DNA from: an uncultured virus (IMG/VR IMGVR_UViG_3300005663_000032)
Lineage: Duplodnaviria; Heunggongvirae; Uroviricota; Caudoviricetes
DNA: 64,000 nt
Strand: one strand, 5' to 3'
Virus record (IMG/VR): IMGVR_UViG_3300005663_000032
Part shown: piece by piece, positions 15,773 to 64,000 of the stretch
Layout of the letters: every line of letters starts with the position of its first letter
How positions within the stretch are numbered: position 1 is the stretch's first letter
Program-made: the position numbers and the translations under genes
Notes under the pieces: model-generated
The model's database searches: none
What the model was told of the DNA's origin: nothing
The model's input: the letters and a program-made list of their open reading frames with translations, nothing else

Positions 15773-16178
15773 CATGAGTTATAATGATGATTCAGTTAAT
15801 TACAAAAAAGAAGAACCCGAAGTGGAAAAAAGAATAGAACTAAGATGTTCTGCATGTGGGACAAAAAACCCAGATGCTTCATCCTTTTGTATGGAATGTG
15901 GAGTTTCGTTAGTGATTGAACATATCCTTCCTGTGCTGCAAAGGCGTACACAACTGACCCAAGGCTCATGGATGCACACACAACGAACTTCTGATAGTGG
16001 CTGGGCATTAGTATTTGTGCTGATGCTTCTCATCGCCCCAATAGCAATGTATATGGCTTCAATTGGGCCAAAATCGCCCGCCGCACTTATCGCAATCGGG
16101 ATAATTGTATTTGTGGTGCAATCAAAAGACCTCCTATCACATATTAAAGGAAACTCAAAAAATGTCAAACGCAGATGA
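15765..16178 (+). CDS. zinc-ribbon membrane protein
   Basis: CSACGTKNPDASSFCMECG plus two TM. Confidence 0.8.
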   Translation: MNSMSYNDDSVNYKKEEPEVEKRIELRCSACGTKNPDASSFCMECGVSLVIEHILPVLQRRTQLTQGSWMHTQRTSDSGWALVFVLMLLIAPIAMYMASIGPKSPAALIAIGIIVFVVQSKDLLSHIKGNSKNVKRR

Positions 16179-34700: not shown

Positions 34701-34778
34701 GTATATACGTTTATACTGTACGTGTATGATACATCCGGAAATGTGGTTAGCGATACAGTTATAGTGAGTGTGATTTAA
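28746..34778 (+). CDS. 2010-aa surface protein: ~100-aa Ig-like repeats, two LamG/ConA-like domains, C-terminal Ig-like repeats
   Basis: Repeated QDTT.P.VT..PS....EYA.SG; WHYLATSWDG...IYVDG...FDDVRILNRAL and IDEVRIFNKAI; start probably ATG 28758. Confidence 0.9.
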   Translation: MVCYMNKSKKNKVIAIICIALFTISMLPAELGGDKLREAIEENTGLDFDNSLINSVSGATDPLICGDFSCSTGWTLQNDGYGVPTISGGVLDLGVGDGHSTAYQTVGYTVAEITALAFRFIEDWGQIYARFYYVGGGYYTYTFPPWTCCVFRTGTFNPALMDQSKSINQFRLYNTGTTTENWYGVYIDYFTISVDSTAPVITTPSGTTQEYATTGTFSINWLSTDNFNLDEVYVDDSAGGYVYSTSSDYYDLAITGTSDTFTTTWNKNAFLGIKTYRGRVYDIVGLYDTTTDVSVTIQDTTNPDVTSYPSNSNCEYASTGTCSIGNWVATDLLPSQYKIQRKLGSGGTYADVRALTAWASGTPYTFDHPKNLALGNVYYYKTYFVDTSTNSAWSTENTVTMEDTTTPTQTARPSTPRDVEYASSGTTTLSFWTGSDYLPSQYRVMRDFNSGGYAQVQGWTAWTSSSQQVTFEHPDTLALGTYKYRVEWKDTTGNTYTSSSMEITVNQQDTTDPIVTSYPSNTNVEYASSGVYTLSNWIATDLLASQYRIMRQFDGGGYAEVRTWTTWVSGNSYTYDHPKNLALGSYDYYAEFRDTTPNTVQSTVTVITQQDTTNPIVTVAQGDINVEYASSGTTQLSWTATDLLADDYQLERQFNSGGYSVIVAYGNGWTSGVATTYAHQRNLALGSYDYRITFKDTSSLTAQDVATITQQDTTSPVVTQYPSDIPCEYASSGICNVGDWIATDYFASQYKIEWNGTGTGWVTFQDWSSWTSGNSYSINHDKTLALGSYQYRAVFKDQQTLETTSGVTTITQQDTTNPIVTAIPSNSSVEYSASGTTTITYWTGGDLLPDSYMIYRQYNGGGYSAITSWIAWSSNTTQITFQHDNTLPLGLYDYYIVFRDTSLNTVNSDATGVTQEDTTDPISTNIPTDYTTEYATSGVYALEFWSGTDLLADEYQIERQYNSGGWGVIRAYTTWVSGNQYSINFDLSESIGTYEYRVTYKDTSTNTVVSPITTITHQDTEVPTVDSPSDQIYESGDTDSRSITWIFGDNYNGKDYDIYRSTDNSTWGSPIYSDTWSGLSGSAIQSVGSQTVSYYYKIEVFDSSDNMILDIVFVEVTTIINPVISHPSDTSYETGDPSTHNVVWIFSDEYGGLDWNIKRSTDNSSWGGILLSYSSSNADGVYTHNVGGESLDYYYLFSVTDNAFHTVTDVVFVGTWATLNLKSFSYDTPATYSDMLAYYPLDNDVLDYSGNGYDGTKSTNTDLLAHYKMENALDSSGNGYDLTPNGDATHVSGKLNNAGKVTDAGNGRWSRALTTEFDSLSAYSVAFWMRYLDIPVNYHDIIHISGSTGSARTLDFYIDANYLTTSFYDDGTSQYKSTSVPLTSLTLDTDQLWHYLATSWDGTYLRIYVDGVLIATSSDYSAFTVGQLPTGLSIGDNQFDAEFDDVRILNRALDLDEIIELYNGEIGTEDDLDNYVAGTISNAMRFGGTSDSIEVALPDSLRTNGISFSLWTFHNVVGTSNSGFLSFMTDGETSDDDGIWFHVNDNQILWRVEDQTNGETAWVQTITTLSNTWYHWVFVFELNSQKIYRNNSLLVEYTKSFDLTDLRTDNSLRLLLGETYLKNSYFHDGLIDEVRIFNKAISTDYIDNLYNLGHGLYDTDERSLLFWNGYDADGVVSYALNRNSIQIANGTITNNEYAYEYFNDGGTIASGIYEFDLILTSTNGVNATHQIDMNYTDAIPHIYATPSIFDFGYGATGNRLQWNVVDNYPSTYIIYKNGTSIQSGSWSADNTLFISLDNLIVGTYNFTIEVFDAGGNSNVDTKIINVLSNAILIETPSDLMYALATTENTLTWLISDYVGGTYQLYRNSVSVDTGSWTSNVDLIINIDGLAIDLYNYTLVITDAQTINSTDMVWVSVQAEDGNPIIIITPDDFSYNYASTENVISWGAVDNFPATYNITMDGELVQEGLWDSSEFIAILVDGLGIGVYTFILYVYDTSGNVVSDTVIVSVI

Positions 34779-34836
34779 GAAATGTTTGAATCCAGAGAGA
34801 TGAATAATCTTTATATTAGAGAATATATTAAAGAAC

Positions 34837-37800
34837 ATGAGGTGTTTACATATGCATAAGAAAACACTATATACGGCATTTACGCTAATACTGCTTTTTG
34901 GATCATTATTGACTGGATTGGATGACAATCCACTTGGCATTGATGATAGCATTCAAACAACAAAACCCATTGACAATACATTAACTGATCAAACATTTGA
35001 TGAATCTATTGCATATGGGCCAGATAGGCAATATAATACTAGTACAAGTTCTTGGAATACAGTTACTCCTGAAAAACAATTAATTTCGGGTGCGTGGGTA
35101 GATCCAAAAGCGAGTAGCATAAATTTGAATTCTCTACCCGATCCAACTGTACAGTATCAAGGTGAATCAGTTAGAGTAGATTATCAAGCAAAAAATAATA
35201 CTGTAAAAGCATTAGATTACGCATATAAAGAAGATTTTGATTTTCTATTTGAATGGGGGTCTATCGGTACAGGAGATGGTGAATTCGATTATCCTTATGG
35301 GATAGCAGTTGATTCTTCGGGAGATGTATATGTTGTAGATCAGAACAATGATAGAGTTCAGAAATTCACCAGTACTGGAACTTTTATACTTGAGTGGGGA
35401 GTTTCTGGCTCTGGAGAAGGACAATTCAATGATCCTTTTAGGATAGCAGTTGATTCTTCGGGAGATGTATATGTTGTAGATCTGAACAATCATAGAATTC
35501 AGAAATTCAATGGTACTGGAACTTTTATACTTGAGTGGGGAGTTGCTGGCTCCGGAGAAGGACAATTCAATAATCCTTTTGGGATAGCAGTTGATTCTTC
35601 GGGAGATGTATATGTTGCCGATAGACTGAATCATAGAATTCAGAAATTCAATGGTACTGGAACTTTTATACTTGAGTGGGGAGTTGAAGGCACTGGAGAT
35701 GGAGAACTGTCTTATCCTTCTGGTCTGGCTGTCGATTCTTCGGGAAATGTATATGTTGCAGATACGGAAAATCATAGAATTCAGAAATTCAATGGTACTG
35801 GAACTTTTATACTTAAGTGGGGAGTTTCTGGCACTGGAGATGGAGAATTCAATATTCCTTCTGGGATAGCTGTCGATTCTTCGGGAAATATATATGTTTC
35901 AGATCTGAACAATGATAGAATTCAGAAATTCACCAATACTGGAACTTTTATACTTAAGTGGGGAGTTGCTGGCACTGGAGATGGAGAATTCAATGATCCT
36001 TTTGGGATAGCAGTTGATTCTTCGGGAAATGTATATGTTTCAGATACAGCCAATCATAGAGTTCAGAAATTTGGATTTATAACAACACAAATCGATCCAA
36101 TTGGACTGTTACCAATTTCTGATGATTCTAATAATTTGGTTGTTGATAATGTTAGATCCGCAGGAACTATTTTTGAAAAGGTGTATTTAGGTTTCACATA
36201 TTATGATATGATTTCGCCAACACAATTAGGCATCGATTTTTCATGGATAACAAAGAAATCAGCAATATTCACTTCTGTATTTAATTCTGAACAATTAACT
36301 CTTGATATAAGTGATCTTGCGGTATACTCTTCAGATGAATTGAAAATAGATTTGATATTTACATATAGCAATGGTATTGGGTTTGTAATAGAAATAGGCA
36401 TTTTTGATACTGGATTAAATCAATATGTATTTTCTACTACGACTAGTGCGGTAAGTTATTTCGATTTTGATAATTCTATAATTAAAATTGATTATATGTG
36501 GGCAGAATCACAAGAAATTACTTCTAATATTAGAAGTAACTTGAAATATTCCAGCCCAACCCAAACCCTCCATACTTTAGATATAGATGTATACGATTAC
36601 CGCATCCCTTTAGCTTTGTACACCGATTGGAATCTCACTTCTATTGTCCCCACAGCTTCTTTTTCATGGGATTCTATCAACAATCGATATCTGATCACCA
36701 ATACCATTCCTACCACCTATTCTATCACTTTCATAGATGGTCAAGGGTGGGGAATCGGTAATCCCTATAATTCCACTATCTCTCCTGTAATTGATGTAAC
36801 CAATGATTTTCTATCCTGTTCGAGTTTTGATTGTGGAAATGTGACTGCTGATATGTCGTCAACAACAGAAAACGAAAATGCTGTGTTTACTGCCAATACC
36901 ACAATCGTCTCAGATGGTGGGGTATCATTGAGAATGGAAGATACTGATGGTGCTGGGTCTGAGGGATTGAACATGGCGGTTGATGAAAGAGGAACATACA
37001 CCATTACATTTGATACTTATGTGGAATTGGGACACACATGGGGCAATATTAGATTCTATTATAGAGATAGTGATACCTCCTGGGCTTATTATCAAGTTGA
37101 TGATATTGTGACTGATAGGTGGCAGAAACACATCGTTAACAATTTCACCTTAAGTGGTGATGAGAGTACCAATAATAGAAATTTGCTAATTTCGTTTGTT
37201 TCTGGACAAGGTGTGGCGTTTATTGACAATATTCATATCTGGGCAGTTAAACCTGTTGTCACCATAACAGATATTAATAAATATCAATTCAGCGTTCCTA
37301 GCACTGTGCTTGACGGATATATCAGCCCTACCATAAACAATCATCCTTTTATTATCACACTTAAAACCCATGAACCCGAATCAACTCTTGAAACTTGGAA
37401 TGAGATCAGTGATGCCACAGGATATCTATCCTTTGAGTACAATAATCCATTAGTCGAACAGGGTTATGTATTGGAATTCAACTCAACCCTGTACAATGTT
37501 ACCATCTCTGAATATTATTTTACACCAATATTAGGATCTCATTACATCAACAATGAAAACTACGATGTTGATTTTGATGATGTAACAGTTGGCGAATTAA
37601 TCAACCTAGATGCCGATACTGAGAGTTTATTCGATGGGACTCTTCAAGTTACAAGTACCGGTTCTGCTTATTGGGCATATTATAGCGCTGCGACACTTTC
37701 TTCTGCATACAGTGTAAGTACAAGAATAAAACATATAGGTGGCGTAGATACCTATATTGGCTTATCATTCTTTGATATTCCTAATAGTGCATCTGCTAGT

Positions 37801-40800
37801 GATGACATGTTCTTTATCAGACCCGGAACACCCCAGACAATATTTCGAGTTGGAGGAGTTCCTACCGCGCCCATGTTTGTTTCGGCGACTGATACTTGGT
37901 ATATTATTAGGGCCGATATAACAACTAATTATGTGAAAATCTATATTGATAATGTTTTGATCAGCACAAGAATCAATACCAATCCTCTACTGAATCCATA
38001 TTTCGGTGTATATGGGTTGGATTCCAATGCTCAGATAGATTTTGTTAGAATAAGTACTCTGACCTTACCACAAATCATTACTACTGCCACCACCACCTAT
38101 TTCACCACAATCAATAATACGGTGGTAAGTGCGCTGTACTCAGATGGCAATTATTTGGGGTTGTACAATTCTCTTGAACTGATAACCCTCAACTTCACTG
38201 CCAATCCACACAACATAACAGTCATACCTGCATTAAATACACAAGTAGTAGATTATGTGTTTGCGTTGGATTATAGTCTCAATTTGAACTACCTCTACGA
38301 TAATTCTATTGGGTTTGCAGTTAGTATTAACTCATTTAATGTTTTAGACACCCAGATTTCAACTTATATGGCTGCAACCCGCAACGGCAATTATACTGCA
38401 TATGAGAACGATACATCAGTTGGTAGTGGAAATTTTGTTGCAGCAGGGACTTCTATACAAACCGCGAGAAATACCACAACTGGTTACATATTTTATTACG
38501 CTATACTTTTCCAAAACAATACCGATCAACTCTGGTTCAACACAACCTATTCGAATGCCGTATTGGTGGTTGTTGACAATCAGATTACAGTGGCTGCTTA
38601 TTCTATCGATGTGGCGGGGGGCTTGTTTTATGCAACTGTTTACACTTTGTGGGGTAATAACACCGTTCAGGTTTATGATAATAACTCTCCATTAGGTGGC
38701 ACAGTAAATGAGGGGACTTCGGTCTGGCCGTGGGCTACATCCGCAGGAACCCATAATTTCTCAATAGTGGTTAGAAACGATGGAAGCATATTTCGTTATA
38801 TCAACGCCTCTGTGACAATAGTAGATTTTTCATTTACTGTATCTGTTTCTGCATTTACCGTCTCCCAATCTAATGTATCTACATATGTGACTGGATCTAA
38901 AGATGGAACTTTTACAATCTACGAAAATAATACCGAGATTGCTACTGGATCATTTAATTCTGTCGGAACATCAATAATCACCGCAAAGAATATTAGTTAT
39001 GATATATTGGTAAATTATGCAATTAGCTTTGTGAACGCATCAGACACGGTCTGGTTTAACACTACTTATTCAAATCCTCCACTGCCCGATTTAACAAACC
39101 AATTACTGGTGGCATCTTACTCAATAGATGCAGATGCTGGCTTATTCTACACCACAATAGAGACATTATGGGCTAATAACACCGTTCAGGTTTATGATAA
39201 TAATTCTCCACTGGGTACTTCAGTATCAGAAGGCACCTCAGTCTGGTCATTCACAACATCTGGAGGAACTCATAATTTCAGTACAGTGGTTAGAAATGGG
39301 GCAAATGTATTTCGCTATCTCAATGTTTCAATAACCATTGTTGATTTCTCATTCACCGTATCTGTTTCTGCATTTACAGTATCCGCTTCTAATGTATCTA
39401 CATATGTAACCGGATCTAAAGATGGAACTTATACAGTTTATGAAAATAATACCGAGATTGCTACGGGTGCATTTAATTCAGTCGGAACATCAATAATCAC
39501 CGCAAAGAATATTAATTATGATATATTGGTAAATTATGCAATCAGCTTTGTTAATGCATCAGATACAGTCTGGTTTAACACTACTTATTCAAATCCTCCA
39601 CTGCCCGATTTAACAAACCAATTACTGGTGGCATCTTACTCAATAGACGCAGATGCAGGCTTGTTTTATACCACAATAGAGACATTATGGGCAAATAACA
39701 CTGTTCAAGTTTATGATAATGATGTATCTCTAGGTACTGCTATATCTGAGGGAACTAGTGTTTGGAGTTTCACCACATCGATTGGTCAACATAATTTTTC
39801 AATATTCGTTAGAAATGATGGAACGTTGTTCAGACAACTGAACACCTCGATTACTCTAGCTAGTGTTGATTTTTCAGTCTCTATAAATACATTTAGTGTT
39901 TCTGAGGTAATTATTTCTACATTTATCACTTCAACTAAAAATGGAAATTATAGTGTTTATGAAAATAACACCAAGATAGGTGATGGTAATTTTATTTCCA
40001 CAGGAACTTCTATTCAATCGAATAGAAATACTGTTGATGGTGCATTTATTTATTATGCTATCGCTTTTCAGAATGTTACTGATGTAGTATGGTTCAATAC
40101 CACCTATTCAAACACTTTAGCTGTGGTGGAAGCAGGTAATCAATTGCTAGTAGCAAGTTATTCAATCGATGCTGATGGGGGATTATTCTATGCAACAATT
40201 GAAACTTCATGGGGAAACAACACCGTTCAGGTCTATGATAATAACTCTCCACTGGGTACTTCAGTATCGGAAGGCACCTCAGTATGGTCATTCACAACCT
40301 CCGCAGGAACCCATAATTTCAGTACTGTGGTTAGAAATGGTGCAGATATATTTCGCTATCTTAACGCCTCTGTGACAATAGTAGATTTTTCATTCACAGT
40401 CTCAATATCTGCATTTACGGTATCTAGTACGAACATCTCTACATATGTAACCGGATCTAAAGATGGAACTTATACTGTCTACGAAAATAATACCCAAATA
40501 GATACAGGCTCTTTTAATTCAGTCGGGACATCAATAATCACCGCAAAGAATATTAATTATGATATATTGGTAAATTATGCAATTAGCTTTGTGAACGCAT
40601 CAGATACAGTCTGGTTTAACACCACCTATTCAAATGCTCCACTACCTGATCTAACAAATCAATTATTGGTAGCAAGTTACTCAATAGATGCAGATGGTGG
40701 ATTATTTTATACCACAATAGAGACTTTATGGGGCAATAATACTGTTCAGGTTTATGATAACAACTCCCCACTGGGAACTTCGGTAAATGAAGGAACTTCA

Positions 40801-43800
40801 GTATGGTCATTCACAACATCTGGTGGTACGCATAACTTCAGCACAGTGGTTAGAAATGGGGCAAACATATTTCGATATCTCAATGTTTCTGTGACAATAG
40901 TCGATTTCTCATTCACCGTATCCGTCTCTACCTTTACAGTATCTGCTTCTAATGTATCTACATATGTAACCGGATCTAAAGATGGAACTTATACAGTTTA
41001 TGAAAATAATACCGAAATAGATACGGGTGCATTTAATTCAACCGGAACATCAATAATCACTTCGAAAAATATTAATTACGATATATTGGTAAACTATGCA
41101 ATCAAATTTGTTAATGCATCAGATACAGTCTGGTTCACTGCCACCTATTCAAATGCTCCACTACCTGATCTAACCAATCAATTACTGGTGGCATCTTACT
41201 CAATAGACGCAGATGCAGGCTTGTTTTATACCACAATAGAGACTTTATGGGCAAACAATACTGTTCAGGCGTATGATAATGATAATTCACTAGGTATTGC
41301 CATCAATGAAGGTACTAGTGTTTGGAGTTTCACAACTTCTGTAGGACAACATAATTTTTCAATATTCGTTAGAAATGATGGAACGCTGTTCAGACAACTG
41401 AACACCTCGATTACTTTAGCAAGTGTTGATTTCTCAGTCTCTATAAATACATTTAGTGTTTCTGAGGTAATTATTTCTACATTTATCACTTCAACTAAAA
41501 ATGGAAACTATAGTATTTATGAAAATAACACCAAGATAGGTGATGGTAACTTTGTTTTCACAGGAACATCTATTCAATCCAATAGAAATACTGTTGATGG
41601 TGCATTTATTTATTATGCCATAGCTTTTCAGAATGTTACCGATGTGGTTTGGTTCAATACCACCTATTCAAACACTTTAGCTGTGGTGGAAGTGGGTAAT
41701 CAATTGCTAGTTGCAAGTTATTCAATCGATGCTGATGGGGGATTATTTTACACGACAATAGAAACCTTATGGACAAATAATACAGTTCAGGTTTATGATA
41801 ATAACTCTCCACTGGGTACTTCAGTAAATGAGGGAACTTCAGTCTGGTCATTCACAACATCTGGTGGCACACATAATTTCAGTACAGTGGTTCGTAATGA
41901 TGCAACAATATTCCGCTATCTCAACGTATCTGTAACCATTGTTGATTTTACCTTCACTGTCTCAGTCTCAGCATTCACTGTCTCAGCTTCTAATATATCC
42001 ACATATATAACTGGCTCTAAAGATGGAACTTATACTGTTTACGAAAATAATACCGAAATTGATACAGGATCATTTAATTCAGTCGGGACATCAATAATAA
42101 CTGCAAAAAATATTAATTACGATATATTGGTAAACTATGCAATCAGGTTTGTTAATGCATCAGATACAGTCTGGTTCACCACCACCTATTCAAATCCCCC
42201 ACTGGCCGACTTAACAAACCAATTATTGGTAGCAAGTTACTCAATAGATGCAGATGCCGGGTTATTCTATACTACAATAGAAACCTTATGGGCAAACAAC
42301 ACCGTTCAGGTTTATGATAACACTTCTCCACTGGGGAATACTGTTTCAGAAGGAACTGCAGTTTGGTCATTTCCTACTTCAGCAGGCACTCATAATTTCA
42401 GTACTGTAATCAGAAACGGCGCAACAATATTCCGATACCTAAACGTATCTGTGACAATAGTTGATTTTATTTTCACCGTAGCGGTCTCTGCATACACCGT
42501 ATCACAATCCAACGTTTCTACATATGTAACTGGCACTAAAGATGGAACTTATACGGTCTACGAAAACGATACCCAAATCACCACGGGCTCACTATTTGCT
42601 GTCGGGACATCAATAATAACCGCAAAAAATCAATCATTAGGAATACTGGTAAATTATGCAATTAAATTTGTAAATGCTTCTGACACAATATGGTTTAATG
42701 CCACATATTCTGGCGATCCTATCGTCGAATTTTCAATAAACATATGGGCGTTTGAAGTAAGTGCAACACAAGTAACCACTTCGGTTTCTTCATCGAAAGG
42801 ATTCGCATGGGCTGTCTATGAGAATAATACTGGAATTGATAGTGGCTTGGGATCTGACGGATACACAATCCAAACAGATAAGAATTTGGCACATGGGGTT
42901 ACAATTAATTATGCAATAATCTTTGCAAATGATAGTACTTCAATATGGTTTAATACCACATATTCTAATGCTCCTGAGGAAGTAAATCAACTCCTAGTTG
43001 CAAGTTATTCTATAGATGCAGATGGTGGATTATTTTATACCACAATAGAAACTTTATGGACAAATAATACAATTCAGGTTTATGACAACAATGCTCCATT
43101 AGGCACAGCAGTATCCGAAGGAACCTCAGTTTGGTCATTCGCAACATCTGGCGGAACTCATAATTTCAGTACTGTAATCAGAAACGGTGCAACAATATTT
43201 CGATACCTAAACGTATCTATAACAATAGTTGATTTTACTTTCACCGTATCAGTTTCTGCCTTTACAATATCTAATTCTAATGTGTCTACTTATATAACCG
43301 GCTCTAAAGATGGAACTTACACAGTTTACGAAAATAATACCCAAATAGATACAGGTTCATTTAATTCAGTCGGGACATCAATAATAACAGCAAAGAATAT
43401 TAATTATGACATATTAGTAAACTATGCAATTAAATTTGTAAATGGCTCTGATACCGTCTGGTTCAACGCCACCTATTCAAACGCCCCACTGCCGGATATA
43501 GCAAATCAGCTCCTAGTTGCAAGTTATTCTATCGATGCTGATGGGGGATTATTTTACACGACAATAGAAACCTTATGGACAAATAATACAGTTCAGGTTT
43601 ATGACAACAATTCTCCATTAGGCACCGCTGTTGCTGAAGGATCTTCGGCTTGGTCTTTTATTCTCAGTTTGGGTACACATAATTTCAGTGTCGTTATACG
43701 AAATGCTGGCCTTTTATTTCGATATCTCAACGTTTCATTCACTATTGCGGATTCTGGAATTACTAGTGGAGATATGTCAGTAAGGCTTCAAAACGGAGTG

Positions 43801-45810
43801 GGCCAAAATGTTCCATTCGAAACATTTGCCACATATTACAGATTCAACGGCACAAATGAATACGCAGGGATGGCCAACAACCTTCTTCATTTTGCGAATG
43901 TTGGATTTACTGTAAATTTATATGTAAATGATTCTTTTGGTCAAGAAATGGCAAACGCCACAGTTTCATATAGCCAATTTTTATTTATCACTGTAAACTC
44001 GTATGAGTTTCTTTTCACCAATCATGTGAATCAATCCCTTCTGGTGCAACTAAAACTTCCTATACAAGCATGGGGCGACGCTGTTGGTTATTGGGTTGGA
44101 GAAGACACATTTAGAACAATACGTCTATTTTCTGGCACTTATGATATAAGAGTTCTGGCTGCTGATGGAATAACAGTACTTCAAACATTTACTCTTGCCG
44201 CAACATCTGATCAAGTAATTACTCTTGATGAAGGCGATGATTTATTTCTATATGGGTATACATGGGACTCTGACAATGGAAATGTGACAATCACATTGGT
44301 TACTAATTATGGAGATTCAAGAGTGGAGGTATGGGACAATTCTAATCTGGTAGGAACATTTAATGAGAATGGAACTATATCATGGGAGATTGCAACAGGA
44401 GTAAATGTCTCTCAAGTAGTATTCTTTATCAACCGAAATATAACAAAATATGGCGGGGCAGATGAACAGCAACTATTTCGTGGATTTTCATATGCAATTT
44501 CACTGGATGATTTTGGAATTTTAATATCTGATGTTTCATGGCTCGAGACAAATGATCAATTCACCATAACTGTGGTGTCTAATCAATTATACTCATTAGT
44601 AACCATATGGCATGATGGGGTGATAAATGAGACTGGTTCCTTGGAAAACGTATTCGTGATCGACAAGGACACAATAACTGCCGGAAATCATAACGTAACT
44701 TTACTTGTCACATGGATTAACGGCACGGGGTATTACTTCAGCAACTGGTTTGTGTTATCTTACTGGACTGCATCATATTACACAGTATCAATTGATGTCA
44801 TTCCATCCGCCCCCGGTCTTAAAATAAAGACAAATGAGATAGATATGGCAAGTTTCAATGTTTATATTGATGGCGAATTAGTTAACAAAGAAGTACCCGA
44901 TCCATTCAAAGAACAGACTACTGAACAGATCAATACAACATTGATTGCCGATGGGACTTTATGGGTGAGAAATACTCAATGGAATCACACTCTAACTATC
45001 AACGATAAATGGGATGTGTTGGTTTACGAAACTGTCGTCGATTTCAGAGATTTCACCTATCGTGTATATGAACTGCCGCTGGCAAAAATAACACTCCGCA
45101 CCGAAACAGAACAAGCAATAGTTCTAGAGCTATATTATTGGGATCAAAGCACCACTAATTCTTACATACTAGGTCCAGAATTATATTTATCGCCAGGCTT
45201 GGAGGGTCAAACAGCATGGATTGTTTCAGGAGTTTATTCTGCTCTGATGTATGATGTCGAAACTCGGACAACAGTTATCTTGGATAAAAAAGTAACAAAA
45301 CGAATCACGGTGGAAAACACTGGTTTAGAATTGGATACACAAGATCTTCTGATAGGACAAGGTGAATTTGAATTAGCAGTTGAGGAACTTGCAGAAGGCT
45401 CATATGCGATTCGTTTAGAACCTGCTGCAGTTGTTAATTTTGCGGATATAAATATTCCTTCAGAAACAGAATTCGCGGAACGAATAGTCACATGGTTGGG
45501 AGATAACTATTTTTATATTGCAGGTATCGTATTACTGCTGGTTGCCGGATGGTATGCACTGAAAAAAGGCACTGAAAAATTATCGAATATTGATTCAGAA
45601 AAACTACAGACAGATATTACCAAACGCCTCAAACGCGATAAAAAACCAAAACCCAATAATAAAATCAAGCCTCGGAGTGAACGCAATAAAAAACCAAAAC
45701 CCAATAATAAAATCAAGCCTCGGAGTGAACGCAATAAAAAACCAAAACCTGAGAAAAAACCACCGCCCCTTTGGGCAGGATTTTCTAACAAAAACAACAA
45801 TGCCAAATAG
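34837..45810 (+). CDS. 3657-aa giant surface protein: 6 NHL repeats, lectin-like domains, ~10 tandem ~170-aa units, C-terminal TM
   Basis: GEF..P.GIAVDSSG.VYV.D..N.RIQKF x6; NQLLVASYSID repeats; many N-x-S/T sequons; TM plus basic tail. Confidence 0.93.
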   Translation: MRCLHMHKKTLYTAFTLILLFGSLLTGLDDNPLGIDDSIQTTKPIDNTLTDQTFDESIAYGPDRQYNTSTSSWNTVTPEKQLISGAWVDPKASSINLNSLPDPTVQYQGESVRVDYQAKNNTVKALDYAYKEDFDFLFEWGSIGTGDGEFDYPYGIAVDSSGDVYVVDQNNDRVQKFTSTGTFILEWGVSGSGEGQFNDPFRIAVDSSGDVYVVDLNNHRIQKFNGTGTFILEWGVAGSGEGQFNNPFGIAVDSSGDVYVADRLNHRIQKFNGTGTFILEWGVEGTGDGELSYPSGLAVDSSGNVYVADTENHRIQKFNGTGTFILKWGVSGTGDGEFNIPSGIAVDSSGNIYVSDLNNDRIQKFTNTGTFILKWGVAGTGDGEFNDPFGIAVDSSGNVYVSDTANHRVQKFGFITTQIDPIGLLPISDDSNNLVVDNVRSAGTIFEKVYLGFTYYDMISPTQLGIDFSWITKKSAIFTSVFNSEQLTLDISDLAVYSSDELKIDLIFTYSNGIGFVIEIGIFDTGLNQYVFSTTTSAVSYFDFDNSIIKIDYMWAESQEITSNIRSNLKYSSPTQTLHTLDIDVYDYRIPLALYTDWNLTSIVPTASFSWDSINNRYLITNTIPTTYSITFIDGQGWGIGNPYNSTISPVIDVTNDFLSCSSFDCGNVTADMSSTTENENAVFTANTTIVSDGGVSLRMEDTDGAGSEGLNMAVDERGTYTITFDTYVELGHTWGNIRFYYRDSDTSWAYYQVDDIVTDRWQKHIVNNFTLSGDESTNNRNLLISFVSGQGVAFIDNIHIWAVKPVVTITDINKYQFSVPSTVLDGYISPTINNHPFIITLKTHEPESTLETWNEISDATGYLSFEYNNPLVEQGYVLEFNSTLYNVTISEYYFTPILGSHYINNENYDVDFDDVTVGELINLDADTESLFDGTLQVTSTGSAYWAYYSAATLSSAYSVSTRIKHIGGVDTYIGLSFFDIPNSASASDDMFFIRPGTPQTIFRVGGVPTAPMFVSATDTWYIIRADITTNYVKIYIDNVLISTRINTNPLLNPYFGVYGLDSNAQIDFVRISTLTLPQIITTATTTYFTTINNTVVSALYSDGNYLGLYNSLELITLNFTANPHNITVIPALNTQVVDYVFALDYSLNLNYLYDNSIGFAVSINSFNVLDTQISTYMAATRNGNYTAYENDTSVGSGNFVAAGTSIQTARNTTTGYIFYYAILFQNNTDQLWFNTTYSNAVLVVVDNQITVAAYSIDVAGGLFYATVYTLWGNNTVQVYDNNSPLGGTVNEGTSVWPWATSAGTHNFSIVVRNDGSIFRYINASVTIVDFSFTVSVSAFTVSQSNVSTYVTGSKDGTFTIYENNTEIATGSFNSVGTSIITAKNISYDILVNYAISFVNASDTVWFNTTYSNPPLPDLTNQLLVASYSIDADAGLFYTTIETLWANNTVQVYDNNSPLGTSVSEGTSVWSFTTSGGTHNFSTVVRNGANVFRYLNVSITIVDFSFTVSVSAFTVSASNVSTYVTGSKDGTYTVYENNTEIATGAFNSVGTSIITAKNINYDILVNYAISFVNASDTVWFNTTYSNPPLPDLTNQLLVASYSIDADAGLFYTTIETLWANNTVQVYDNDVSLGTAISEGTSVWSFTTSIGQHNFSIFVRNDGTLFRQLNTSITLASVDFSVSINTFSVSEVIISTFITSTKNGNYSVYENNTKIGDGNFISTGTSIQSNRNTVDGAFIYYAIAFQNVTDVVWFNTTYSNTLAVVEAGNQLLVASYSIDADGGLFYATIETSWGNNTVQVYDNNSPLGTSVSEGTSVWSFTTSAGTHNFSTVVRNGADIFRYLNASVTIVDFSFTVSISAFTVSSTNISTYVTGSKDGTYTVYENNTQIDTGSFNSVGTSIITAKNINYDILVNYAISFVNASDTVWFNTTYSNAPLPDLTNQLLVASYSIDADGGLFYTTIETLWGNNTVQVYDNNSPLGTSVNEGTSVWSFTTSGGTHNFSTVVRNGANIFRYLNVSVTIVDFSFTVSVSTFTVSASNVSTYVTGSKDGTYTVYENNTEIDTGAFNSTGTSIITSKNINYDILVNYAIKFVNASDTVWFTATYSNAPLPDLTNQLLVASYSIDADAGLFYTTIETLWANNTVQAYDNDNSLGIAINEGTSVWSFTTSVGQHNFSIFVRNDGTLFRQLNTSITLASVDFSVSINTFSVSEVIISTFITSTKNGNYSIYENNTKIGDGNFVFTGTSIQSNRNTVDGAFIYYAIAFQNVTDVVWFNTTYSNTLAVVEVGNQLLVASYSIDADGGLFYTTIETLWTNNTVQVYDNNSPLGTSVNEGTSVWSFTTSGGTHNFSTVVRNDATIFRYLNVSVTIVDFTFTVSVSAFTVSASNISTYITGSKDGTYTVYENNTEIDTGSFNSVGTSIITAKNINYDILVNYAIRFVNASDTVWFTTTYSNPPLADLTNQLLVASYSIDADAGLFYTTIETLWANNTVQVYDNTSPLGNTVSEGTAVWSFPTSAGTHNFSTVIRNGATIFRYLNVSVTIVDFIFTVAVSAYTVSQSNVSTYVTGTKDGTYTVYENDTQITTGSLFAVGTSIITAKNQSLGILVNYAIKFVNASDTIWFNATYSGDPIVEFSINIWAFEVSATQVTTSVSSSKGFAWAVYENNTGIDSGLGSDGYTIQTDKNLAHGVTINYAIIFANDSTSIWFNTTYSNAPEEVNQLLVASYSIDADGGLFYTTIETLWTNNTIQVYDNNAPLGTAVSEGTSVWSFATSGGTHNFSTVIRNGATIFRYLNVSITIVDFTFTVSVSAFTISNSNVSTYITGSKDGTYTVYENNTQIDTGSFNSVGTSIITAKNINYDILVNYAIKFVNGSDTVWFNATYSNAPLPDIANQLLVASYSIDADGGLFYTTIETLWTNNTVQVYDNNSPLGTAVAEGSSAWSFILSLGTHNFSVVIRNAGLLFRYLNVSFTIADSGITSGDMSVRLQNGVGQNVPFETFATYYRFNGTNEYAGMANNLLHFANVGFTVNLYVNDSFGQEMANATVSYSQFLFITVNSYEFLFTNHVNQSLLVQLKLPIQAWGDAVGYWVGEDTFRTIRLFSGTYDIRVLAADGITVLQTFTLAATSDQVITLDEGDDLFLYGYTWDSDNGNVTITLVTNYGDSRVEVWDNSNLVGTFNENGTISWEIATGVNVSQVVFFINRNITKYGGADEQQLFRGFSYAISLDDFGILISDVSWLETNDQFTITVVSNQLYSLVTIWHDGVINETGSLENVFVIDKDTITAGNHNVTLLVTWINGTGYYFSNWFVLSYWTASYYTVSIDVIPSAPGLKIKTNEIDMASFNVYIDGELVNKEVPDPFKEQTTEQINTTLIADGTLWVRNTQWNHTLTINDKWDVLVYETVVDFRDFTYRVYELPLAKITLRTETEQAIVLELYYWDQSTTNSYILGPELYLSPGLEGQTAWIVSGVYSALMYDVETRTTVILDKKVTKRITVENTGLELDTQDLLIGQGEFELAVEELAEGSYAIRLEPAAVVNFADINIPSETEFAERIVTWLGDNYFYIAGIVLLLVAGWYALKKGTEKLSNIDSEKLQTDITKRLKRDKKPKPNNKIKPRSERNKKPKPNNKIKPRSERNKKPKPEKKPPPLWAGFSNKNNNAK
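35245..36072 (+). repeat. six near-identical 141-bp repeats encoding an NHL beta-propeller
   Basis: Recurrent gattcttcggga...tcagaaatt at a 47-aa period. Confidence 0.9.
38310..43750 (+). repeat. intragenic array of ~520-bp units (10 A-type and 11 B-type domains)
   Basis: Counted from the translation; 39721-40140 recurs at 41281-41700. Confidence 0.85.
45638..45749 (+). repeat. perfect 48-bp tandem repeat x2.3 (KKPKPNNKIKPRSERN)
   Basis: Units start at 45638, 45686, 45734. Confidence 0.95.
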
Positions 45811-59884: not shown

Positions 59885-60084
59885 GGGTGATGATCTTAAT
59901 GTTAGATTACCCCGAAACTCTGAGAGGCCAACTCGAATTGGCCTGTACTACACTTGAAGAAAAAGTCGAAGATAAAAAAATATATAACAAACTCCCTACA
60001 GATGAACAAATGGCAATGATCAAATCTATTCAGGAGCTCAAACACATAATTACAAATGAAACAGAAAAATTCTTAGATGATTAA
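59851..60084 (+). CDS. hypothetical protein
   Basis: AGGAG at 59876 suggests a start near 59887. Confidence 0.55.
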   Translation: MGISPNRIKELRVMILMLDYPETLRGQLELACTTLEEKVEDKKIYNKLPTDEQMAMIKSIQELKHIITNETEKFLDD

Positions 60085-60177
60085 AGGATTAACTTCCCAC
60101 AAAACTAATATAATTAAAAACTAATTCGCTTACTAAATAAGCCGTAATATCGGGATCGTATGCTCAGGAAAAAACAA

Positions 60178-60543
60178 ATGAAAGACCTTAACGAACTAAA
60201 AGAAGCTCTGTTGAAACTTCATAGAGCCAACACCTGCCCATTATCTACCGATCCATTTGAGGGAGTAGTAAAACTCTCAGATGTGGTAGAAATCGGAGAT
60301 GATATAATACTGAATAACCAAATCATTGAATTAGACGATGAATGGTATCTCAACACCGTTGTTGCATTTAGTAAATTCAAAGACATTGCCGCAAAATATG
60401 ATGAAACTGGCAACCGAACAAGATTACTAAAAATAGCTGGTGAAAATTATCGTAGATTTGCGATTGCTCCACATTACGGGCTAGCTGTTGCGGAAGATAT
60501 CAGAAAGAAAAATGAGGAATTCCAAAACAACCCTAGACTATAG
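60178..60543 (+). CDS. hypothetical protein (repeat-led)
   Basis: CAGGAAAAAACAAATG leader favours the 60178 start. Confidence 0.65.
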   Translation: MKDLNELKEALLKLHRANTCPLSTDPFEGVVKLSDVVEIGDDIILNNQIIELDDEWYLNTVVAFSKFKDIAAKYDETGNRTRLLKIAGENYRRFAIAPHYGLAVAEDIRKKNEEFQNNPRL

Positions 60544-60711
60544 GTCTAAACGGCCTAACCTTTAAATAATATAAATAAATTATTTCTCTCGGCGAAAAAA
60601 CATACTAGATTATTCAACAATCTAATTCAACATAACTGCTCAGACAGTTATTCTGAATATGGTCAACAAAACTGCATAAATCCTCATAAATTTAACATAA
60701 GGCAGTGACTA

Positions 60712-61620
60712 TATTTCCTCTCTTAACTGAGAAGTCCGTGACTGGTGACAGTACGGCCCTCGCGAGAAGTCGTCCGGTTATGTGCGCCGGCTTATTAGGG
60801 AAAAAATAAGTGAGAAAATACAGGTAGAAACACGAAATACGAACTAGTCCTATCGATCGATCGATTTTAGTCCGTATAGGAATCCTGTCGCCCAATGAAT
60901 ATGAACAAGGTAAGGACAACCACTCATATGAGGGAAAAGAACACACTATTTACTTTAACTATAATTCGTCTCGGGGCAAACCGAGAAAACCGTAGTTGGC
61001 GACTTCTATGGGCCCGCGAAAGCGATCGCAGCGTAACGACTCAAGGGTAAAACAACATTGAGTTCAGTTCTAGACTGAAGAACGTTAATGTGCACATTAC
61101 ATACGGGAAAACAACGATTAATTCTCCATGAAGCATCAAAACTTCAACATAAATGGACGTAGTTCTGGGGGAATCTCAGAACAGAAGTGGAAAGGACGCC
61201 TTTCCGGAATCAGCGGAGATTCAAAACATTTTCTCCGTACAAAAAATAGAGGTCTTTCAAGAAGACCATGCCCCTGTGTTAATGAATGCACGGGCCACTA
61301 AATGATTCAGCCATTGACACCCTTACCATACCAATGGCAATTAAACAACTGAAACAAATAAGTTGATCTCTGCGGAGAACACACTTACGAGATATGAAGG
61401 TTGTTTGAAATAGTAACTTCGGTTATCTATTTCTACTATTGTGCTAAACTTGCACAGCCAGCCAATAGTGAGATAAACTCGATTAAGCAACAAGCAATGT
61501 CAGTATTTACATACAAGAGGACATCGAATTTACCGCTCAAAGAGTCTATTTCTTCACAAAAAGTGAGGCATTATTGAACCAAATACTTGTGAGTATTTTG
61601 CAATAATGGGCTGATAACGT
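60712..61620 (+). ncRNA. candidate large (~900 nt) structured non-coding RNA
   Basis: No + strand ORF of 60 aa or more; more than 15 hairpins incl. cUUCGg and GNRA loops; long-range helix; upstream promoter motif. Confidence 0.75.
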
Positions 61621-61631
61621 AGGCGTACGCT

Positions 61632-61859
61632 ATGAGAAGATCAGTAAAGAAATTAGATGAGTTTTATAAAGAACACAACGTGGTTGTGAACGGAGTACAA
61701 CTCGCAATAACATCAAGGCAACAGGAAATTGTAACGGCTTGCGTGGCCGAAAACGGATTCCAGTTGAAAGACATTAAAAAAGTCCGACAGATGGGTCATG
61801 GCAGTGTGGCAATCGATTTAATGATTGGCAAGACATTGTACACAGAGAACTCATCATAA
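61632..61859 (+). CDS. hypothetical protein
   Basis: 75-aa ORF directly after the structured region. Confidence 0.6.
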   Translation: MRRSVKKLDEFYKEHNVVVNGVQLAITSRQQEIVTACVAENGFQLKDIKKVRQMGHGSVAIDLMIGKTLYTENSS

Positions 61860-61955
61860 AACAATTCCATATCATAACAAACTAATTCGGTGGCCGAAAA
61901 GGCCACAGACAACTACTACGAACGTAGACACGAGTGAGCGGGCCTCACAGAATTC

Positions 61956-62270
61956 ATGACAGAATTCAACCGATTTCGCCCCTACGGGGCCCTAATTCAT
62001 ATGTGGTTCAGAAAAAGAAAAATCCAAAACAATACATATGTAGATTTAACTGATCCTGCATATCCTGTAATTCGAGTAAAAATTCCCGCAAAACAAATCG
62101 AATGGAAGTGGAAAAAGAATCGGCTTACTATTATAATCGATGGAGTTGATTATACTCCAAGTACAATAAAAAATATTCCTAATCTAAAAACACGAAATTT
62201 TATCAGAAACAAATTGCCAACTGTTATCGAATTAAACGCGATCGTTGACAGACTTTTAGCAACCCAATAA
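61956..62270 (+). CDS. hypothetical protein (repeat-flanked)
   Basis: Bounded by repeats. Confidence 0.65.
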   Translation: MTEFNRFRPYGALIHMWFRKRKIQNNTYVDLTDPAYPVIRVKIPAKQIEWKWKKNRLTIIIDGVDYTPSTIKNIPNLKTRNFIRNKLPTVIELNAIVDRLLATQ

Positions 62271-62334
62271 CAAATACACTCGAAAGAGCCTAATTAGCTT
62301 ATTAACAATAAGACCATTTGCAGGAGAAACAAAC

Positions 62335-62553
62335 ATGCCAATTGTAGACATAAATGATATTATCGGTGATGATGGCGAAGACACAATATCAATAGTGTTA
62401 GTCAGAACATTTGAATATGAAGGGCTTTCAAGAGTTCCATCAAAAATAAATTATTTTATTAATAATAAACCCGTGACTAAGAAAGAATTCAACGAGATGA
62501 ATGACGATATGAATGATCTTGCCGGAGTTCCTTCAAATGATAGCTACAAATAA
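62335..62553 (+). CDS. acidic hypothetical protein (repeat-flanked)
   Basis: CAGGAGAAACAAACATG leader. Confidence 0.65.
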   Translation: MPIVDINDIIGDDGEDTISIVLVRTFEYEGLSRVPSKINYFINNKPVTKKEFNEMNDDMNDLAGVPSNDSYK

Positions 62554-62627
62554 CAACACATGCCCGAAAAGGGCCTAATTAGCTTACTAACAATAAGACG
62601 CGCATACGCACTTGCAGGAGAAACAAA

Positions 62628-63449
62628 TTGACCGTTGAAGCAATCTCAGAACCTCTTTATAAGATCGTTCTGAAGAAATCACAAATCGAAGCAAATGGCA
62701 TCAGCCCGTTATTCAAAGGGCTTGCACTTGATAACCTTGAAATTGTTGAAGGTTATTCATATATGGATAAAGAAGAGTTTGTTCACAAATTCAGAAGATC
62801 CATTGTACACAATACAAAAACAGACGCTATTGATCCAAAAACAGGAAAAAAACCATATAAAAATCATATGTATTTTAATCCATGTCCTGACTCCGTTGGC
62901 AGATTCCAACGAAGAGATGGCAAATGGATTTATCCAAATGGACACAGAAATTGTATTGTACCACGCAGAATGTATCGAGCAGTTATTGTCACCCGTTTGG
63001 CTCCTCAGTTTCGTGAGATGCTAAACAAAGGTGAATTCAAAGGCTTGAGAGAGGCATATATTAATCCTCTTGTAAAAGTCGCAAGAATACTCCCCATGTT
63101 GATCAGACATGCAGACCCAGTTATTTATCGAAGACCAAACGACTTCACATTTATACCTGGATTTGAGGCAATTGAATGCAAGAAACATTATGGATTTAAG
63201 AAAAAAATAAATCTTACACATATGTTGAAATATGACCAAAATCTTGGAGAGGAAGAAAGAACATTCATCGATGATGAACTCAAGAAACTCCCTAAAATTT
63301 TGAAATGTGATGCAAAATGTACAAGTTTTAAAAACGTAAAATCCAGCGAGAGAAATTTTCTTAATAAATTGGCTCAGAGTCCAAACACACCAGATGCTTG
63401 GGTAGATCCAGAGATAAAAGATATTTTCTCAATCTCAATTTATTACTGA
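62628..63449 (+). CDS. hypothetical basic protein with scattered Cys/His
   Basis: TTG start after CAGGAGAAACAAA; 273 aa. Confidence 0.75.
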   Translation: MTVEAISEPLYKIVLKKSQIEANGISPLFKGLALDNLEIVEGYSYMDKEEFVHKFRRSIVHNTKTDAIDPKTGKKPYKNHMYFNPCPDSVGRFQRRDGKWIYPNGHRNCIVPRRMYRAVIVTRLAPQFREMLNKGEFKGLREAYINPLVKVARILPMLIRHADPVIYRRPNDFTFIPGFEAIECKKHYGFKKKINLTHMLKYDQNLGEEERTFIDDELKKLPKILKCDAKCTSFKNVKSSERNFLNKLAQSPNTPDAWVDPEIKDIFSISIYY

Positions 63450-63559
63450 AAAATTAGTGGATAGTCTTCTGCCACATTCAAGAGAGACATTACCTCACTT
63501 CTTACAAGAAGATTAATAACTTTTTTATATAATATAGAAATATAGAAATATAGAATTAT

Positions 63560-63682
63560 CGGGAGCTAGCTCAGTCAGGTAGAGCGCTTATAGTTCTTTT
63601 GAAATTTGATCCCTTACGGGCACACATCAGAATTTGGACATTGAGGATGTAGAGGTCATGGGTTCAAATCCCATTCTCCCGA
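63560..63682 (+). tRNA. tRNA-like gene with ~55-nt insert in a degenerate anticodon arm (identity not assignable)
   Basis: CGGGAG/CTCCCG acceptor, TAGCTCAGTCAGGTAGAGC D arm, ATGGG-TTCAAAT-CCCAT T arm. Confidence 0.75.
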
Positions 63683-63694
63683 ATATTTCACAAT

Positions 63695-63786
63695 GCTGGA
63701 GAATAATCATTCCTTCTCATTTAGATCCCGCAGGGGCACGATTTGGAATTTGGTACACTTGAAAGGTTCAATCCCTTTCTCCAGCG
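63695..63786 (+). ncRNA. tRNA-like RNA lacking the D arm, carrying the same insert
   Basis: GCTGGAG/CTCCAGC acceptor stem, AAAGG-TTCAATC-CCTTT T arm. Confidence 0.65.
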
Positions 63787-63797
63787 CTTTTTCACAA

Positions 63798-63835
63798 TGC
63801 TGTAGGATTCAAGACTTCGAACTCTTCCTATGGCA
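63798..63835 (+). ncRNA. minihelix-like hairpin with T-loop-like TTCGAAC
   Basis: TGCTGTAGGA/TCCTATGGCA stem; same TTTCACAATGCTG lead-in as the previous unit. Confidence 0.5.
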
Positions 63836-63848
63836 CTTTTTTATTTCA

Positions 63849-63934
63849 GCGAAGATGCATTTCATTCCTTTTCATTTAGATCCCGCAAGGGCACGATTTG
63901 GAATTTGGTTACAAAACTATCCCCGCATCTTCGC
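63849..63934 (+). ncRNA. stem-closed RNA with the same conserved insert
   Basis: Perfect 10-bp GCGAAGATGC/GCATCTTCGC stem; 45/47 nt identical to 63708-63754. Confidence 0.65.
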
Positions 63935-64000
63935 ATTATTTCGATCTAATTGATCCCCCTAACAGGTGGCATTAAACTATGGAAGAATTTTTAACACAAA

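Follow-up and report, generated by a model that had tools for sequence, protein, structure and literature searches.

Tandem tRNA-scaffolded units with a common RNA module precede a divergent Ro60 homologue in a putative archaeal mobile element and resemble Y RNA loci

Introduction

Y RNAs have been described from animals, many bacteria and phages, as far as the accessible parts of the literature cover them. According to the available portion of the survey by Chen et al. (2014, PMC4201824), 254 bacteria and 22 phages encode YrlA-like RNAs within 4 kb of a Ro60 gene and on its strand. The same portion gives GGUCCGA and GNCGAAN0-1G as motifs of the Ro-binding 5' strand and places the Ro site of Yrn1 in an extended terminal stem (PMC4201824). 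YrlA is portrayed in the part at hand as a close tRNA mimic that resembles a circularly permuted tRNA, its 'anticodon stem' running into the Ro60-binding helix (Wang et al., 10.1101/312249). TROVE-type proteins have also been reported in Asgard 'Nidhogg' viruses and in Borgs, for which the available sections only speculate about a Y RNA partner (10.1101/2021.07.29.454249; PMC11208441). A search of the full-text literature found no description of an archaeal Y RNA, but only these mentions of TROVE/Ro60 in Asgard viruses and Borgs, whose supplements lay outside the search. Here we describe an array of four tRNA-derived or stem-closed units next to a Ro60-like gene in the virus record IMGVR_UViG_3300005663_000032. 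The stretch analysed, hereafter the window, is 64,000 nucleotides long and forms the first 64 kb of the 130,905-bp metagenome contig LAZR01000084.1; the locus around the array (L003) spans contig positions 59608-67908.

We favour, with moderate confidence, the view that the units, with their tRNA scaffolds, are Y-RNA-like RNAs which partner a divergent Ro60 homologue encoded by an Asgard-type mobile element, and infer that they are transcribed and bound by this protein. This reading is proposed because the array shares position, strand, tandem layout and tRNA mimicry with the Y RNA loci of bacteria and phages.

Four units and a module conserved at the RNA level

The array occupies positions 63560-63935 on the + strand of the window and consists of four units arranged head to tail with spacers of 12, 12 and 13 nt; all helices were checked base by base. 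Units U1, U2 and U4 enclose a common module with the pattern GATCCC-N4-GGGCAC-N6-GAATTTGG, which has three matches in the window (at 63608, 63724 and 63879) and a mean of 0.00 matches in 100 shuffles of it. In the first copy a 5-bp stem is followed by an internal region, a CCC/GGG hairpin, CAC and GAAUUUGG. The modules of U2 and U4 are 96% identical across 48 nt. At the module borders this identity collapses, and the flanking sequences, compared in the same register, have essentially nothing in common. The stems that close the units around the modules comprise 7, 9 and 10 Watson-Crick pairs; their sequences are unrelated and all of them are paired. None of 2000 flank shuffles matched the three closing-stem lengths together.

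RNAalifold, applied to the three modules, returned the 5-bp stem and the CCC/GGG hairpin, with one compensatory exchange of C-G to U-A and, in addition, one A-U to G.U change. The sole open reading frame (ORF) that overlaps the array, 63693-63953, reads the modules of U2 and U4 in different frames, and the module is therefore conserved at the nucleotide or RNA level. Selection on the array thus appears to act on RNA.

U1 is the most complete of the units. The Rfam tRNA model scores it at 39.5 bits, compared to a gathering score of 29, and finds 62 nt inserted between model positions 28 and 42. The acceptor stem consists of 6 bp and one C.U mismatch and is followed by the discriminator A. The D arm combines the stem GCUC/GAGC with the loop AGUCAGGUA, the T arm has the stem AUGGG/CCCAU with the loop UUCAAAU, and the variable loop is 5 nt long. 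The residues that shape the tertiary structure of tRNA are retained, namely U8, A14, G18G19, the T loop UUCAAAU and G53-C61. ARAGORN with default settings called no tRNA anywhere in the window, U1 included.

U2 has neither a D arm nor an anticodon arm in the helix check. Its perfect 7-bp acceptor stem GCUGGAG/CUCCAGC directly adjoins a canonical 5-bp T arm (AAAGG-UUCAAUC-CCUUU). The T-loop motif GGTTCRANYCC is found twice in the 64-kb window, in U1 and U2 only, compared to 0.40 expected matches. The 9-bp stem of U3 includes two G.U pairs, and its 18-nt loop contains CUUCGAAC. By folding energy only U4 stands out (z = -3.25, one of 200 shuffles equally stable); the minimum free energy z-scores of U1, U2, U3 and the whole array lie between -0.4 and -0.9 and are not significant. 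The spacers share sequence as well: TTTCACAATGCTG occurs in the window only in the two spacers before U2 and before U3, both of which terminate in UUUCACAAU, and the spacers contain only short T runs (T5 and T6).

A preliminary description of this DNA had drawn much of this picture, and its architecture of the array is borne out, all elements being present where it had placed them: acceptor, D and T arms with a broken anticodon stem in U1, acceptor and T arm only in U2, and a 10-bp stem in U4. Its label 'bare minihelix' for U3 is fair for the 9-bp stem; the T arm that the term implies is not canonical. The GATCCC module that it had noticed in units 1, 2 and 4 is confirmed by the three matches against 0.00 in shuffles. 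Likewise its central observation, a conserved non-tRNA module in tRNA-derived or stem-closed scaffolds, agrees with three unrelated closing stems that are all paired, the structure being kept while the scaffold sequence changes.

A divergent Ro60 homologue encoded downstream

An ORF of 545 aa begins at 63979, 43 nt after U4 and on the same strand, which is within the 4 kb and the strand orientation typical for Y RNA genes and their Ro60/TROVE neighbours. The AlphaFold model of its product (mean predicted local distance difference test score, pLDDT, 74.9) shows an alpha-solenoid that is followed by a vWA fold, with a helical extension at the C-terminus. The top 11 Foldseek matches of this model are all Ro60, Rsr or TROVE proteins (E 1.2e-9 to 7.7e-7, ∼500 aligned columns) and include human and Xenopus Ro60, D. 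radiodurans Rsr, Ro60 of the Thermus phage phiLo and a 'Trove domain' entry. In agreement with this, the top 10 VIA-align matches belong to Ro60/Rsr/TROVE with Z of 14.2-17.1 over 382-410 residues, while vWA-only structures reach Z ≤ 12.6 over 150-180 residues. The best structural match is Rsr 2nvo (Z 17.1, 409 residues, root-mean-square deviation 5.1).

Sequence profiles point in the same direction. As a set of genuine TROVE proteins we used ORFs matching PF05731 from 11 of 151 Bacteroidota genomes, ten of which were aligned into a profile. Against these ten, hhalign gave a probability of 98.2% for a profile of 149 family representatives (E 3.2e-14, 351 columns, beginning in the helical domain) and of 97.2% for the six close homologues (E 3.9e-11). 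A tblastn search against phages retrieved gp78 of Microbacterium phage FuzzBuster, annotated as 'Ro-like RNA binding protein' (E 5e-8). The metal ion-dependent adhesion site (MIDAS, DxSxS...T...D) is formed by D276, S278, S280, T336 and D360, which are invariant across the 149 relatives. The downstream gene is a remote but real homologue of Ro60/TROVE-vWA proteins.

The homology is called remote because no significant direct match to a family or to a PDB sequence was obtained. Also among its relatives, none of the 24 family representatives scanned matched TROVE at E ≤ 0.001. Given the lack of a Pfam TROVE match, the ORF apparently belongs to a more divergent TROVE branch than the proteins of Nidhogg viruses and Borgs. 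It has five close homologues, and a profile search collected 599 cluster representatives at E ≤ 0.001; the ORF thereby defines a large, unannotated, divergent TROVE-vWA family. The ten relatives looked up include proteins from metagenome-assembled genomes of Heimdallarchaeota (MBD3190243.1), Odinarchaeota (MFW9992155.1) and Lokiarchaeia (HMF34732.1). Scanning viral contigs with the protein as guide returned no relative.

As a separate observation, 5 of the 24 family representatives scanned (P0011, P0012, P0015, P0016, P0026) carry a C-terminal RING or U-box fused to the TROVE-like/vWA body, and these fusions hint at a possible link to ubiquitin-type ligases.

Table 1 Features of the array and its surroundings (positions in the window unless stated otherwise)
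Feature	Position	Strand	Description	Basis
TATA-box-like TTTATATA	63524..63531	+	candidate promoter (archaeal type) for the array, ∼30 nt before U1	sequence reading
U1	63560..63682	+	tRNA-like cloverleaf, 62-nt insert instead of anticodon arm	Rfam RF00005, 39.5 bits, E 8e-5
Module copy 1	63591..63638 (core 63608-63637)	+	stem GUUCU/AGAAU, CCC-UUAC-GGG hairpin; in U1	
Spacer U1-U2	63683..63694	+	12 nt, AUAUUUCACAAU	
U2	63695..63786	+	7-bp acceptor stem and T arm GGUUCAAUCC, discriminator G, module inside	helix check
Module copy 2	63707..63754 (core 63724-63753)	+	stem AUUCC/GGAAU, CCC-GCAG-GGG hairpin; in U2	
Spacer U2-U3	63787..63798	+	12 nt, CUUUUUCACAAU, T5 run included	
U3	63799..63835	+	9-bp hairpin stem GCUGUAGGA/UCCUAUGGC, 18-nt loop, without module	helix check
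U4	63849..63935	+	perfect 10-bp closing stem GCGAAGAUGC/GCAUCUUCGC around module and small hairpin	helix check
Module copy 3	63862..63909 (core 63879-63908)	+	stem AUUCC/GGAAU, CCC-GCAA-GGG hairpin; in U4	
Leader hairpin	63952..63969	+	GAUCCCCC-UAACA-GGUGG, located in the 5' leader of the Ro60-like ORF; pairing at 4 of 5 positions	
545-aa Ro60/TROVE-vWA-like ORF	63979 to contig position 65616 (= L003:4372-6009)	+	first part, 63979..64000, within the window	

Comparison with described Y RNA loci

Loci that served as controls show a comparable arrangement. In FuzzBuster, the YrlA model (RF02553) matches ∼200 nt upstream of gp78 with 33.3 bits and E 1.9e-5, below its gathering score of 69. All three Bacteroidota TROVE loci compared at E ≤ 0.01 have matches to YrlA, Deinococcus_Y_RNA or the tRNA model that adjoin the gene on its strand, and such matches often stand in tandem, two or three in a row.

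Like YrlA of Salmonella, Mycobacterium and mycobacteriophages (RF02553), as the available parts of the sources describe it, the array is a putative small RNA gene locus beside a Ro60 homologue on the same strand (PMC4201824; 10.1101/312249). It also shares with these accounts the tRNA-like core with T and D arms, an 'anticodon stem' that leads into the presumed protein-binding part, the presence in a mobile element and the tandem arrangement with other units. Both of these arms carry canonical loop residues in U1; U2 retains the T arm. The topology, however, differs. The ends of YrlA are located in the helix that binds Ro, and the acceptor stem forms a closed loop, whereas the units described here end in the acceptor stem and have a candidate module closed by a tetraloop. 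The permuted order of YrlA (T arm, closed acceptor loop, D arm) was not seen; the units follow the natural tRNA order. Moreover, GNCGAAN0-1G is lacking, and the host would be an Asgard-type archaeon instead of a bacterium. By analogy, the conserved module would in three dimensions occupy the place of the Ro-binding helix of YrlA, with the opposite circular permutation. As read from the sequence, this appears to be a new topology, in which the natural tRNA ends are kept and the tip of the anticodon arm bears the candidate module for protein binding.

Yrn1 of Deinococcus radiodurans (RF01053) is similar in that a tRNA-like core in natural order lies within an RNA that adjoins the Ro gene; in one control locus (L019) an RF01053 match (2865-2998) encloses a tRNA-model match (2906-2972). 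In contrast to Yrn1, whose Ro site is the terminal stem in the portion of the literature at hand, the conserved element of our units is internal and the terminal stems are unconserved. With metazoan Y RNAs (RF00019) and Ro60 the units share the modular logic of a conserved, protein-binding and a variable part, and a partner with TROVE ring and vWA/MIDAS fold. Unlike them, they have no terminal bulged helix with GGUCCGA; GAUCCC of the module resembles this motif loosely, which is a candidate likeness only. The cloverleaf, interrupted in its anticodon region by an insert, and the archaeal context recall intron-containing archaeal pre-tRNAs, but a canonical or convincing relaxed bulge-helix-bulge (BHB) is missing, as is an ordinary anticodon arm once the insert is removed, and the same insert is found in U2 and U4, which are not tRNA scaffolds. 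The locus finally parallels the Nidhogg viruses and Borgs by its TROVE-type protein in an archaeal virus or extrachromosomal element, while the accessible parts of those reports describe no RNA, and the protein studied here has no Pfam TROVE match.

Elements in natural tRNA order also occur beside Ro60 genes of Bacteroidota, together with YrlA- or Yrn1-type matches (L012:2929-3000, L014:2764-2850, L019:2651-2721). Those in L012 and L019 are tRNAs by Rfam; ARAGORN misses the former and calls the latter a 70-nt 'Ser'. The element in L014 is called by ARAGORN only, with a 4-base anticodon. Unpermuted tRNA-like RNAs near Ro60 genes may thus outnumber what the YrlA model suggests.

Contrary evidence and alternative explanations

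Several observations weigh against an assignment of the units to Y RNAs. On the RNA side, the models Y_RNA (RF00019), YrlA (RF02553) and Deinococcus_Y_RNA (RF01053) had no match at E ≤ 10 in 63300-64000, and the same models do detect the bacterial and phage controls. As judged by eye, GGUCCGA and GNCGAAN0-1G are absent from the terminal stems CGGGAGC, GCUGGAG, GCUGUAGGA and GCGAAGAUGC, and these stems differ in sequence from unit to unit. The covariation within the module amounts to two independent module versions from a single locus. In viral contigs the module pattern has no match elsewhere; three other metagenome loci and four genome loci that match it are GC-rich bacterial, lack a Ro-like ORF and appear chance-like. 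A looser pattern gave 15 single matches in viral contigs, with a top covariance-model score of 20.4 bits (E 0.02), which is also chance-like, and blastn of window positions 60000-64000 found no match in the phage collection.

On the protein side, the ORF matches neither Pfam TROVE (PF05731) nor any other Pfam family at E ≤ 1, the NCBIfam Rsr model is not significant (E 0.2, 10 bits compared to a cut-off of 900), and neither the single protein nor the profile built from 149 family sequences retrieved a Ro60 chain from the PDB sequences. The linkage of array and Ro60-like gene is known here from one locus. Some contigs of run X2 match this locus and then diverge into unrelated sequence at L003 4314, 4361 and 4437 (window/contig 63921, 63968 and 64044), and given these points the linkage may differ between strains. 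The loose ends suggest either variants that occur side by side and recombine where array and Ro60-like gene meet, or another copy of the U4 module elsewhere. Among contigs from the sequencing runs that contain the stretch (three runs of one study, two of them possibly its source) no variants were seen in the letters of the array itself, and hence they contribute no covariation. No RNA run is listed for the stretch, which speaks neither for nor against expression.

The strongest competitor, which we nevertheless regard as unlikely, holds that the units are structured RNAs whose function has nothing to do with the Ro60-like protein, for example tRNA-mimic decoys of tRNA-targeting defences or modifying enzymes, or regulatory small RNAs; the preliminary description had named anti-defence tRNA mimics as its alternative. 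The evidence for selection at the RNA level applies to it equally, the resemblance of the window to a virus or large mobile element would suit it, and so does the lack of matches to Y RNA models. It leaves unexplained, however, why the array directly adjoins a Ro60 homologue and shares its strand, as Y RNAs do. Since U4 bears the module without any tRNA feature, tRNA mimicry cannot be the function that the units have in common. The preliminary description had proposed a functional RNA module in tRNA shells acting as a decoy, guide or aptamer; module and shells hold, and the Ro60/TROVE-vWA neighbour points to the Y RNA/YrlA-like class instead of such a generic role.

Less probable still is an explanation of U1 as a genuine tRNA with a long intron, of U2-U4 as its decaying duplicates and of the module as a recently duplicated intron, the Ro60-like gene lying nearby by coincidence. 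U1 has the acceptor, D and T arms and conserved tertiary residues of a tRNA and the corresponding Rfam score of 39.5 bits (RF00005), introns are frequent in archaeal tRNA genes, non-canonical positions included, and the 96% identity of the modules in U2 and U4 is compatible with recent duplication. With introns allowed, ARAGORN offers a sole intron solution for U1, a tRNA-Leu(GAG) whose 48-nt intron directly follows the 5' strand of the anticodon stem. However, this stem contains A-U and G.U pairs only, without any G-C pair, and an extra nucleotide is required at position 26. Leu tRNAs have a long variable arm, compared to which the 5-nt variable loop of U1 is short. In a BHB scan across the U1 insert, none of 1953 junction pairs combined four of four central pairs with two flanking helices of at least 2 bp, relaxed recognition by an endonuclease of another kind being conceivable. 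Five of the 1953 had three of four central pairs; two of these yielded ARAGORN calls, as 85-86-nt products, and none gave a product of ordinary tRNA length. Neither ARAGORN nor the junction scan thus produced an ordinary anticodon stem-loop with identity elements after intron removal, and no canonical BHB turns U1 into an ordinary tRNA, the outcome that the preliminary description had set against its own interpretation. Three unrelated closing stems that are all fully paired are unlike simple decay, and the sharp drop in U2-U4 identity at the module borders also speaks against decaying duplicates.

It is very improbable that the whole array merely forms a long structured, cis-regulatory 5' leader of the Ro60-like mRNA without giving rise to separate RNAs. 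Array and ORF share a strand, with 43 nt between the array and the AUG, the spacers contain T runs of no more than T5 and T6, and a module-like hairpin in the leader could sequester the Shine-Dalgarno-like sequence. In contrast, the layout of minihelix and discriminator with regular spacers of 12-13 nt resembles a tRNA-type processing array, and runs of T5 and T6 can terminate archaeal transcription. The hairpin in question has as its 3' arm the Shine-Dalgarno-like GGUGG, ∼10 nt before the AUG of the Ro60-like ORF; by sequestering it, it could be a site of autoregulation through RNA mimicry. The fifth GATCCC of the preliminary description falls here. The hexamer exists at 63952-63957, but a fifth module copy is not supported, since a covariance model of the three modules (R1) found no match at E ≤ 10; what lies downstream of the array, where further units had been thought possible, is the Ro60-like ORF.

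Untranscribed att-site or integration scars at a tRNA gene, as which tRNA genes being common integration targets and a TnpB/IS605-family gene 2.6 kb downstream might let the units appear, are the least probable explanation, since the 3' part of U1 has no second copy and hence no att-type duplicate in the 64-kb window (up to 3 mismatches), no integrase family was found among the 52 ORFs of window and locus (19 + 33) scanned with Pfam, the shared sequence is an internal insert and not a tRNA 3' end, and each unit has a two-sided complementary stem of its own.

Proposed function and implications

For the Y-RNA-like partners of the Ro60 homologue that we favour, the following mechanism can be envisaged. 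The array would be transcribed from the TATA-like element upstream of U1, possibly jointly with the Ro60-like gene. Discrete RNAs would then be delimited and stabilised by the acceptor/T-arm minihelices in U1-U3 and by the 10-bp stem in U4, probably by way of enzymes that process tRNA ends. We propose the module, with its 5-bp stem, internal region, CCC/GGG hairpin and GAAUUUGG, as the common binding site of the TROVE/vWA protein, because in Y RNAs the conserved part binds Ro60 and the variable part binds effectors; conservation and gene adjacency are consistent with this. By the same analogy, the scaffolds, which vary from a full tRNA core through a T arm alone to a plain stem, could be the effector-binding halves that tether the protein to different partners or gate it.

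If the units are indeed such partners, the Ro ribonucleoprotein would reach the third domain of life. They would represent a third way of joining a tRNA-like core to a protein-binding module, with the natural tRNA ends kept, and a concrete model for the origin of Y RNAs from tRNA genes. A further-reaching idea, which we consider speculative and rather unlikely to hold in full, is that Asgard archaea and their mobile elements own a Ro60-Y RNA system built from unpermuted tRNAs, in which a Ro-binding module replaces the anticodon loop. In that case the array would be a living example of the transition from tRNA to Y RNA, hitherto a hypothesis for bacterial YrlA. The system would then belong to the prokaryotes most closely related to eukaryotes and thus be relevant to how the eukaryotic Ro ribonucleoprotein arose, and the graded scaffolds would be alternative adaptors that steer one protein to different partners.

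Genomic context and further observations

The genes of the window suggest an archaeal virus or a large mobile element. At 16105-19626 (+), an MCM helicase gene is broken by an intein with a LAGLIDADG homing-endonuclease domain, Pfam assigning MCM_N, MCM_OB, the MCM P-loop, MCM_lid, Intein_splicing and LAGLIDADG_3 to it. Two giant neighbouring ORFs at 28746-45810 (+) encode proteins of 2010 aa with Laminin_G_3 (LamG) and of 3657 aa with NHL/beta-propeller repeats, which could be adhesin- or fibre-like proteins of the element. Further genes of window and locus encode a subtilase, an HNH endonuclease, a PD-(D/E)XK/Cas4-like nuclease and RusA, and many ORFs have no family match. PHROGs, searched with 33 ORFs, recognised only the HNH endonuclease and the Cas4-like nuclease.

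The TATA-box-like TTTATATA is a candidate archaeal promoter of the array because of its spacing to U1, an argument that draws on the general knowledge of archaeal promoters. Between this element and U1, three tandem copies of the 8-nt unit AATATAGA are found at 63531-63559.

Directly upstream of the array, an ORF at 62628-63449 (+) encodes a protein of 273 aa that had been considered as a possible effector. It has no family match, and its AlphaFold model is unusable (pLDDT 39.5); one homologue is known, with 72% identity. About 0.6 kb past the Ro60-like gene lies a TnpB/OrfB_IS605 gene with a Cas12f1-like TNB domain (L003:6590-7957, contig 66197-67564).

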